From IMG/VR virus record IMGVR_UViG_2718217859_000011, positions 1-64,000 of that record: a DNA stretch of 64,000 nt. One strand, given 5' to 3'. The position numbers were made by a program, and so were the translations under genes. The notes under the pieces are model-generated. The model worked only from the letters and a program-made list of their open reading frames with translations. It ran no database searches and was not told the DNA's origin. Of the stretch, positions 30,254 to 30,973 are shown piece by piece (position 1 is the first letter of the stretch; each line of letters opens with the position of its first letter). Source of the DNA: a virus (taxonomy: Duplodnaviria; Heunggongvirae; Uroviricota; Caudoviricetes).

Positions 30254-30973
30254 TTAACGCACCCTGACAATGTTAATTTCAAAATCATCAATATGTCCGC
30301 TATTAAGTATAACGAATTTCGTACTCCCACTTCTGTACGATTTTGATAACACAAGACGATCATCATAGCGTGCAAGAACGTAATACCAGACATTATCATA
30401 GTGGATCGACTGATATTCCCTCTTAAACTGGGGTTTGTACCAACCGGCAATAAGAGAGAATGTCCAGAAATAAATCATGAATCCAGCCATCATGAACTCA
30501 ATTCGGTGATGGCGAATAAAAGATACTTCCGAAAAGCATTTGACTGAAATAAGTTTTCTTCCTGACCTGACAAAAAGCGTAATTATAAAGACAGCAATAA
30601 CACAAAAAATAAGCACATCTGGCTCAACGTACTGATGAATGACCGAAAATTCCAGAACAGGTGGAATAAAAAGCAGCAATATTGCCAGAAAAAGTCTGAT
30701 AAAACTCAAATTCTGTATATTGTTTTTTTGTTTTATGCCTAAAAAGAAAACAATACCAACACCCCATCCAGTAAGGAATATAACGATAACGGTCACAGCA
30801 TAAAACAAACTTCGGGCCACATCATCAACGCCAGCTCCGACAACCCACCATGGAAAGCCATAGTAAAAGGAAGTACCCCATCCATAGAAATAAGCGCTTC
30901 CCCATCCAAGACAGCCCATATAAGCAATAAAAAGTGAAGAGTTCCTCAGTAGAGTACTGTCATCCATACCCAT
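30254..30973 (-). CDS. polytopic inner-membrane protein, unknown function
   Basis: 239 aa with ~5 hydrophobic helices rich in W/Y/F/G and a ~60-aa soluble C-terminus; markedly AT-rich codon usage by eye. Confidence 0.6.
   Translation of the reverse strand: MGMDDSTLLRNSSLFIAYMGCLGWGSAYFYGWGTSFYYGFPWWVVGAGVDDVARSLFYAVTVIVIFLTGWGVGIVFFLGIKQKNNIQNLSFIRLFLAILLLFIPPVLEFSVIHQYVEPDVLIFCVIAVFIITLFVRSGRKLISVKCFSEVSFIRHHRIEFMMAGFMIYFWTFSLIAGWYKPQFKREYQSIHYDNVWYYVLARYDDRLVLSKSYRSGSTKFVILNSGHIDDFEINIVRVR

Follow-up and report, generated by a model that had tools for sequence, protein, structure and literature searches.

The 64,000-nucleotide stretch of DNA analysed here (the window, positions 1 to 64,000 of the IMG/VR virus record IMGVR_UViG_2718217859_000011) is a segment of an Escherichia coli chromosome, identical to strain RM9088, that carries a lambdoid prophage. 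An intact open reading frame (ORF) on the minus strand of the window, at 30254-30973, encodes a membrane protein labelled only 'hypothetical protein' in its RefSeq entry (WP_024166254.1). The analysis has revealed, with very little doubt, that this ORF is a member of the TfpB family and is carried by an autonomous moron cassette of about 0.8 kb, dropped into the tR' region after the late antiterminator gene Q of a defective E. coli lambdoid prophage. The frame counts 239 codons from its first ATG, and the likeliest start is the second ATG (30967), which is used by RefSeq and by all the homologues and gives a protein of 237 amino acids (Table 1).

The TfpB-family gene and its cassette

A BLASTP comparison aligned residues 10-234 of the window protein with residues 11-242 of TfpB from Moraxella bovis (L027:491-1276) at 28% identity (E=1e-24), and this full-length alignment establishes its membership in the TfpB family, in a place where the initial annotation had recognised no family. 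The protein also matched phrog_1521, a family with no assigned function, over 221 of the 222 profile positions (E=3.7e-84). In a large protein database, the precomputed assignment to PF27470 ('TfpB') was found on all 100 close homologues and on distant ones. This assignment was read from the annotation of the homologues, and the Pfam-A release scanned with the window protein, which is older than PF27470, gave no match; the NCBIfam and PADLOC scans gave none either. The window gene is a member of a catalogued but functionally unstudied family, and a search of a literature library returned nothing on PF27470, on the TfpB of Moraxella type or on the corresponding ORF of the Shigella virulence plasmid pINV. 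The name tfpB was given to the unassigned ORF of the classical Moraxella pilin inversion region, first seen in M. bovis and M. lacunata. The 'TfpB' of Acinetobacter baylyi is a PilB-like ATPase that shares only the name.

Only 72 clusters were recovered when 1.84 billion cluster representatives were searched exhaustively with a profile, so the TfpB family is small. Its members form four groups: Enterobacteriaceae (Escherichia, Shigella, Citrobacter, Salmonella, Cronobacter, Enterobacter and Yersinia), a divergent enteric clade (Klebsiella, Raoultella and Enterobacter; hhalign 97.5%), Pasteurellaceae together with Neisseriaceae, and Moraxella. The loci of M. bovis, M. equi, M. lacunata and M. 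oblonga were confirmed by tblastn, which alone picked up phages 434 and 2B8; megablast against sequenced phages gave no match. YmfE from the e14 element of E. coli K-12, a 234-amino acid membrane protein encoded next to icd, was considered as a relative of the Klebsiella clade and found to be unrelated (hhalign probability 0.2%).

The gene follows Q and a tR'-like terminator located between both genes, as stated in the initial annotation; Q was identified by its PF03589 match and the terminator by its hairpin and U-tract (Table 1). The terminator is also kept in prophages that do not have the cassette. The cassette, which comprises leader, ORF and promoter-like element, is a presence/absence polymorphism between otherwise collinear prophages: the gene order is Q, cassette, a 65-amino acid hypothetical protein and a methylase in the window, and Q, hypothetical protein and methylase in O104:H4 and at least a dozen genomes. 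The query region measures 1801 nt in the window versus about 894 nt in the cassette-free records, an indel of 907 nt. In a three-way alignment, the window matches the empty site to about position 31062 and then again from about 30249. About 90 nt of the tR' region are duplicated on both sides of the cassette, with copies 76-78% identical; the repeat search paired 31099-31144 with 30192-30237 (78% identity, spacing of 907 nt). The terminator hairpin of the upstream copy folds at -12 kcal/mol, and that of the downstream copy at -4.1 kcal/mol (z = +0.9), no better than shuffled sequences. No flanking direct repeats were found at the homologous loci of Yersinia, E. albertii and 434, and the duplication is thus peculiar to the prophage backbone of the window.

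The AT-richness described in the initial annotation was confirmed by calculation. The ORF has a GC content of 38.3% (GC3 36%) against a mean of 53.3% for the window (z = -2.9) and 47-56% for the neighbouring genes, and only 1.1% of 720-nt windows are as AT-rich. The recent acquisition deduced from this composition does not hold. In every host examined, AT-rich Pasteurellaceae included, the gene lies 5-20 GC points below its flanks, so low GC is a stable trait of the family and not evidence of recent acquisition, and synonymous divergence is saturated among lambdoid lineages. The AT-richness is an old family trait.

A promoter-like element is located at a fixed distance from the gene, with its 3' end 38 nt ahead of the ATG. 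The 80 IMG/VR loci comprise 27 distinct upstream variants, and 26 of these retain the two hexamers, the TG and the 18-nt spacing, while spacer and leader vary in sequence. In the plasmid pUMNK88_Ent from enterotoxigenic E. coli (ETEC), homology to the phage copies starts exactly at the -35 hexamer, the spacer differs, and neither Q nor tR' is present. A sigma-70 extended -10 promoter that moves along with the gene would be expected to leave this pattern.

The window cassette has most of the attributes by which morons are recognised (Juhala/Hendrix): presence or absence between collinear genomes and a deviant base composition (38.3% versus 47-56% GC). Dispensability for lytic growth applies to the homologue in phage 434 only, and no intact terminator belonging to the cassette was found by RNA folding after the stop codon, where the degenerate tR' copy lies. 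The moron position suggested in the initial annotation is thus borne out by the indel, by the conserved promoter-like element and by the 434 homologue, which belongs to a segment missing from phage 434B. The cassette resembles other lambdoid morons (bor and lom of lambda, HK97 gp15, stx and LT-II cargo) as an optional gene of deviant composition with a promoter-like element in the Q-to-lysis region; it differs from them in its lack of an intact terminator and is unrelated in sequence to characterised moron products.

Table 1. Coordinates of the TfpB-family gene, its cassette and adjacent elements in the window
Feature	Position	Strand	Basis or description
Q-type late antiterminator gene, 273 aa, directly upstream of the cassette	31213..32034	-	PF03589 Antiterm, E=7e-51; phrog_127/25523 'anti-termination protein Q-like'; RefSeq 'antitermination protein'
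Left copy of the ~90-nt imperfect direct repeat, terminator intact	31062..31155	-	Repeat search, gapped alignments
tR'-like intrinsic terminator, 6-7 bp GC-rich hairpin and U6 tract	31105..31132	-	Terminator scan; RNA fold, -12 kcal/mol
Promoter-like element: -35 TTGACT (31035-31030), 18-nt spacer, extended -10 TGt-TATGTA (31014-31006)	31006..31035	-	Conservation
Shine-Dalgarno-like GAGAG, 6 nt 5' of ATG 30967	30974..30978	-	Sequence reading
TfpB-family (PF27470 / PHROG 1521) inner-membrane protein gene, 237 aa	30254..30967	-	Frame open from upstream ATG 30973
Internal 2 x 24-nt tandem repeat encoding GWGSAYFY-GWGTSFYY, most conserved part of the first transmembrane helix	30858..30905	-	Repeat search, conservation profile
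Right copy of the ~90-nt repeat, starting just 3' of the stop codon, terminator hairpin degenerate	30156..30249	-	Repeat search, gapped alignments
Backbone gene, 65 aa, weak TrmB/MarR-like winged helix-turn-helix (wHTH), phrog_331	29882..30079	-	Directly 3' of Q-tR' in cassette-free prophages

Occurrence of the TfpB family

The gene is widespread and had not been studied before. It is present in 453 of the 5426 complete E. coli genomes (about 8%), nearly always at full length, as well as in phage 434, in pINV of all Shigella groups and in toxin plasmids of porcine ETEC. As it stands, this describes a conserved gene with clear boundaries, present in classic model phages and in major virulence plasmids, which is not in itself a surprise; it also ties scattered 'hypothetical proteins' together, and to the Moraxella TfpB, as a single candidate for a lysogenic-conversion or exclusion function.

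A Q gene lies directly upstream in 64 of 80 viral contigs, and it is lambda-Q-like (PF06323) in 48 of them, PF03589 in 15 and PF06530 in one. In a further prophage group a Q82-like PF03589 protein precedes the TfpB gene, and in Yersinia the gene follows a PF06530 Q; TfpB homologues thus follow three Pfam families of Q proteins. Phages 434 and 2B8 carry a copy 56% identical to the window protein, directly after a Q82-like gene and a terminator and labelled by expert curators simply 'putative membrane protein' (CPT_434_68, UMO75332.1 in 434), and this locus shares with the window the same promoter-like element and the same 24-nt repeat at the equivalent place. It differs in the Q subtype, in having genes for TciB and a SASA esterase downstream instead of the wHTH protein and DNA methylase of the window, and in having no flanking duplication. 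The 434 record delimits a '434B nonhomology' segment (41277-45846) that contains CPT_434_68. Phage 434B, a propagated clear-plaque phage, has DLP12 DNA in place of the segment with this homologue (PMC9119081), and the homologue is therefore dispensable for lytic growth.

Copies of the gene were also found away from Q. Intact copies are carried by pINV in S. flexneri, S. sonnei, S. boydii, S. dysenteriae and enteroinvasive E. coli, and the Shigella copy corresponds to CP0168 of pCP301, about 6 kb from spa40 and among insertion sequence (IS) elements. A deletion mutant of 'orf163' in pWR100, which might be the Shigella TfpB homologue, has been described as more Congo-red positive (PMC4267944); it is given no weight as evidence here. 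Porcine ETEC plasmids carry an intact TfpB gene 0.9 kb from eltAB (L039, 2987-5714, pUMNK88_Ent), and another copy is present in an IncFII plasmid contig. In Citrobacter rodentium a 434-like remnant has decayed around the homologue, which is still intact and was found on 192 contigs; it lies next to an lpxR gene split into ORFs of 164 and 175 amino acids, and the Q gene between them is gone (L004, 3863-5717). The gene lies beside an SseJ-like gene in Salmonella enterica arizonae and diarizonae. In Pasteurellaceae and Neisseriaceae it is a lone gene among housekeeping genes, such as those for the phosphotransferase system, ftsK, mdh, ribA, tsaB, purF, dld, adhE and smc. In Glaesserella parasuis it is located beside a gene with a Cdt A/C domain (L022, 5974-9017), probably part of a cdtABC cluster. 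Homologues thus recur near genes of AB-type toxins (eltAB, cdt), and this proximity may reflect a shared origin as prophage cargo.

Members of the Klebsiella/Enterobacter clade have a distinctive arrangement at the end of a prophage, with a SRAP (YedK-like) gene, the TfpB gene 50-60 nt downstream on the same strand, convergent UmuC-UmuD genes, a Hin-type invertase and tail-fibre genes. It was observed at about 5270-9200 of four loci (L125, L126, L128 and L129) from Klebsiella pneumoniae, K. aerogenes and Enterobacter kobei. The K. electrica member of this clade is located by icd and adjoins an AbiL-like ATPase defence gene.

On its 1.9-kb contig, the M. bovis homologue (261 amino acids) is flanked by two pilin 3' halves in opposite orientations; in M. 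lacunata and M. equi the neighbours of the gene are piv, a silent fragment of pilin and the expressed pilin. The Moraxella TfpB and the window protein are homologous over their full length and of the same size, with five transmembrane (TM) helices and a small C-terminal beta domain, and share the N-terminal motif AYxYGWG...YxGxPWW...ARSL and the C-terminal motif YYxL. They differ in context: the Moraxella gene, flanked by pilin cassettes and piv, should be phase-variable, whereas the window gene follows a phage Q and has no pilin or invertase gene nearby. Several copies in Avibacterium and in M. lacunata and M. equi are frameshifted or truncated (L031, 5959-6707; L036, 5959-6264; L030, 6013-6600), and many members of the Avibacterium cluster have 135-199 amino acids. 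Phase variation by simple-sequence repeats was considered and discarded: the Pasteurellaceae and Neisseria copies have no tracts longer than A7/T7, and at the frameshifted or truncated sites no such repeat able to drive it was found.

Architecture and possible function of the protein

The membrane topology proposed in the initial annotation, about five helices and a soluble C-terminus, agrees with hydropathy analysis and an AlphaFold model. TM helices were located at about residues 10-34, 50-78, 89-108, 116-134 and 156-177, and the model adds two short amphipathic helices and a five-strand C-terminal beta domain of about 55 amino acids (184-235). The model was obtained from a 49-sequence alignment (pLDDT 77.9, pTM 0.69); 30 enteric sequences had given a pLDDT of 60, which rose to 78 when Neisseria and Pasteurellaceae homologues were added. 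The mean number of Lys plus Arg residues per successive loop in the 49 sequences is 1.3, 0.2, 2.4, 0.6 and 4.0, and from this alternation an N-in/C-out orientation is predicted, in which loop 1 and the C-terminal domain are periplasmic. An overall architecture of about 240 amino acids, with five TM helices, an aromatic-glycine motif in TM1 and loop 1 and the small beta domain, is common to the family, and it is conserved at full length from E. coli to Moraxella and Neisseria.

The most conserved stretch runs from TM1 through loop 1 into the beginning of TM2 (SSxxxAYxGxLGWGSAYxYGWGxSxYYGFPWWxVxxG...ARSL), with further conserved positions in TM5 (YFW...G) and in the beta domain (YYxL). A ladder of small residues at i,i+4 spacing in TM1 (G21, A25, G29, S33, G37) runs beside an aromatic one (W22, Y26, W30, F34, F38). 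Apart from R52, all invariant residues are aromatic or small. None of Asp, Glu, His, Cys and Lys occupies an invariant position in the family alignment, the enteric 'DD' being N, S, P or M elsewhere, and an enzymatic role, including GT-C-like transfer, is therefore unlikely. The structure search proposed with the initial annotation, like the sequence searches, gave no match to any known enzyme or transporter, and its only matches were to generic helical membrane bundles, some of them channel subunits, with low scores; no homology to a housekeeping membrane protein was found.

The gene is an autonomous single gene, phage-optional and mobile between Q modules, plasmids and chromosomes, and it is under purifying selection with no conserved partner. 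Pairwise ratios of nonsynonymous to synonymous divergence (dN/dS) among homologues are 0.05-0.18, with synonymous sites often saturated, also between lineages within the lambdoid phages. This strong purifying selection persists even where all phage functions are gone. Together with the intact copies on pINV, on the ETEC plasmids and in C. rodentium and with the lone genes of Pasteurellaceae and Neisseriaceae, it supports an autonomous function that benefits the host.

On these grounds, we tentatively favour a TfpB-family protein that is expressed in the lysogen and serves as a protective or exclusion factor, non-enzymatic and active on the periplasmic side of the inner membrane. It would be produced in the lysogen from its own sigma-70-type promoter, and again late in lytic growth by Q-mediated read-through. 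Inserted in the inner membrane with its N terminus in and its C terminus out, it would display near-invariant features at the periplasmic face, namely the TM1 ladders, the YYGFPWW loop and the small SH3-like beta domain. It would act alone and stoichiometrically, as expected from the absence of conserved catalytic-type residues in the family, by binding a conserved inner-membrane or periplasmic component of the host. The carrier cell would thereby be protected, most plausibly by a block on the entry of foreign DNA (superinfection exclusion) or of a membrane-targeting toxin. P22 SieA, HK97 gp15 and T4 Imm are small inner-membrane superinfection-exclusion proteins that act alone, and the window protein may work in a similar way; it has no detectable sequence or profile similarity to them, and unlike them the TfpB family also has stable non-phage chromosomal members. 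An exclusion or immunity factor, if this were true, would represent a new family of prophage-encoded defences. The wider proposal is doubtful: that the whole family constitutes an unrecognised single-gene, non-enzymatic inner-membrane system of protection against phage DNA or membrane toxins among mucosal Proteobacteria, distributed on lambdoid prophages, on pINV and ETEC LT plasmids and in chromosomal islets, and placed under phase-variable control in the Moraxella pilin segment.

Several observations weigh against an exclusion factor. Neither experiment nor homology ties the TfpB family to phage exclusion, immunity or any other phenotype; PADLOC assigned no family to the window protein, and its PHROG matches carry no functional label. 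A recognisable defence neighbour was found in only one of about 15 contexts examined, and a cellular role in the envelope would explain the stable, fixed-locus chromosomal copies in Aggregatibacter and the linkage to pilin genes in Moraxella no less well. A strict consensus promoter scan made no call at the cassette, where the -10 has no final T and the spacer is 18 nt, so expression in the lysogen is something we can only infer. The N-in/C-out topology is predicted from the positive-inside rule alone, and the structural model is of medium confidence (pLDDT 78).

The virulence cargo found near the gene, i.e. spa40 at about 6 kb on pINV, eltAB at 0.9 kb, the SseJ-like effector, lpxR in 434 and C. 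rodentium, and cdt, would suit an envelope or host-interaction factor, a lysogenic-conversion or virulence protein that acts on surface structure assembly, a secretion system or outer-membrane vesicles and dye binding, with no exclusion of phages or toxins. The family is also confined to animal-associated Proteobacteria (Enterobacteriaceae, Pasteurellaceae, Neisseriaceae and Moraxella), and virulence-factor loci are listed among the morons of 434 and 21 in the 434 genome paper (PMC9119081). This role is nevertheless considered unlikely, with no conserved partner gene and no known phenotype, and adjacency to toxins may be hitch-hiking: Stx, LT-II and Cdt genes share the Q-to-lysis cargo region, fragments of which were moved to plasmids by IS elements. 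A distinctly unlikely alternative is an accessory of type IV pili (T4P) or pseudopilins that, like other membrane proteins with genes downstream of pilin, binds pilin-like proteins in the inner membrane by their hydrophobic N-terminal helix and modulates assembly, so that the phage copy interferes with, or tunes, the T4P or type II secretion system of the host. The founding Moraxella member lies inside the invertible pilin segment, in the same orientation as one of its two pilin 3' cassettes, and would therefore be expected to be expressed in phase with one pilin type; the conserved Gly/aromatic face of TM1 would suit helix-helix binding. TfpY/FimB-like proteins, membrane proteins with a periplasmic C-terminal domain that promote pilus assembly, have an analogous layout, encoded after a terminator downstream of pilin genes (PMC11841053). 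Like them and the TfpX and TfpZ proteins, the window protein has a predicted short cytoplasmic N terminus and periplasmic C-terminal domain and appears non-enzymatic, and the Moraxella TfpB is likewise encoded downstream of pilin. They are set apart by the published description, three TM helices and a two-sheet domain of about 130 amino acids versus five TM helices and a barrel of about 55, and the survey of TfpY homologues does not mention the Moraxella TfpB (PMC11841053). A pilin motif search within 6 kb found pilin genes at the Moraxella loci only and none at the window, Pasteurellaceae, Neisseriaceae, enteric, plasmid or Klebsiella-clade loci. T4P are rarely expressed by E. coli, and lambdoid phages are not known to use them. 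An action on the envelope or on pili, if true, would explain an ORF of the Moraxella pilin switch that has been unassigned for 35 years.

The ladder of small residues in TM1 is typical of tightly packed or oligomeric helices, and the low-scoring bundles returned by fold searches included channel subunits; both features are compatible with a small channel or transporter-like protein whose oligomeric, glycine-zipper-like TM1 would form an ion or solute pathway and alter permeability or potential. This is very unlikely for a protein with no similarity to any transporter or channel family and with no conserved charged or polar TM residues except R52 and R91, at the ends of helices. As the first ORF after Q and tR' in 64 of 80 viral contigs, and with no intact terminator between it and the downstream late genes, the gene might instead have only a late lytic function, as the first late gene expressed by Q antitermination, in tuning the timing of lysis or in blocking re-adsorption of progeny or injection into the lysing cell. 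A purely lytic role is also very unlikely for a gene kept intact under purifying selection without Q, lysis or virion genes on pINV and the ETEC plasmid and in C. rodentium, Salmonella and Pasteurellaceae; in addition, the window prophage is itself defective, 434B does without its homologue, and the protein is encoded 3 kb from the holin gene and is far larger than known holins and antiholins. Finally, the RefSeq label would be compatible with a spurious or decaying ORF in AT-rich junk DNA, an explanation already refuted by the conservation data. It would have to account for a 237-codon open frame in DNA of 38% GC, for dN/dS values of 0.05-0.18 over saturated dS, for a full-length architecture kept from E. 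coli to Moraxella and Neisseria and for presence in 453 of 5426 genomes. A chance ORF is likewise excluded by these dN/dS values and by the probability of a 239-codon open frame, about 1e-7 at approximately 6.6% expected stop codons (arithmetic estimate).

Experimental systems that could be applied to the favoured exclusion factor and to its alternatives already exist: the 434/434B pair, the published pWR100 deletion collection and a cassette small enough to be cloned.

Other features of the window

The window prophage is defective: its S49 head-protease gene (13980-18192) is interrupted by an IS66-family element (15374-17989; tnpA, tnpB and an ISCro1-like transposase), and its tail-tip gene J (808-4020) carries the annotation of a truncated pseudogene. 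Upstream of Q, two RusA-family Holliday-junction resolvase genes are present on the minus strand (32031-32405 and 34915-35310), with DUF968, a 171-amino acid ORF and a KilA-N gene between them, an arrangement that suggests a duplicated or mosaic nin region.

Downstream of the cassette, a terminator-like hairpin was detected by the terminator scan at 29895-29878, at the wHTH gene. The DNA methylase gene is followed by a tRNA cluster (28379-28632, minus strand), in which ARAGORN identified tRNA-Arg(UCU) and a tRNA with CAU anticodon (tRNA-Ile in RefSeq); the 'tRNA-OTHER' annotated by RefSeq between them was not reported by ARAGORN or Rfam. A TerB-family gene (143 amino acids) and a DUF3927 gene (54 amino acids), which constitute another moron pair, are located just upstream of the holin gene (27613-28205, minus strand). 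The DUF3927 protein is named 'TciB' (colicin resistance / cell-division inhibition) in the 434 annotation. Between the DUF3927 and holin genes, a strong Rfam match to the small RNA STnc100 was found at 27349-27547 on the minus strand (148.7 bits, E=8e-34).

The class II holin gene (26837-27052) lies about 3.2 kb downstream of the TfpB ORF, past the methylase, tRNAs and TerB/DUF3927 genes. A holin or antiholin identity was rejected for the window protein: a protein of that class would be expected to have fewer than 150 amino acids and to be encoded next to the endolysin gene, whereas the window protein has 237 and the holin gene is distant. Further downstream, between a YlcI/YnfO-like gene and the lysis genes, a segment of about 1 kb (22977-24011) has the lowest GC content of the window (35%), with no annotated gene, no ORF above 80 codons and no Rfam match.

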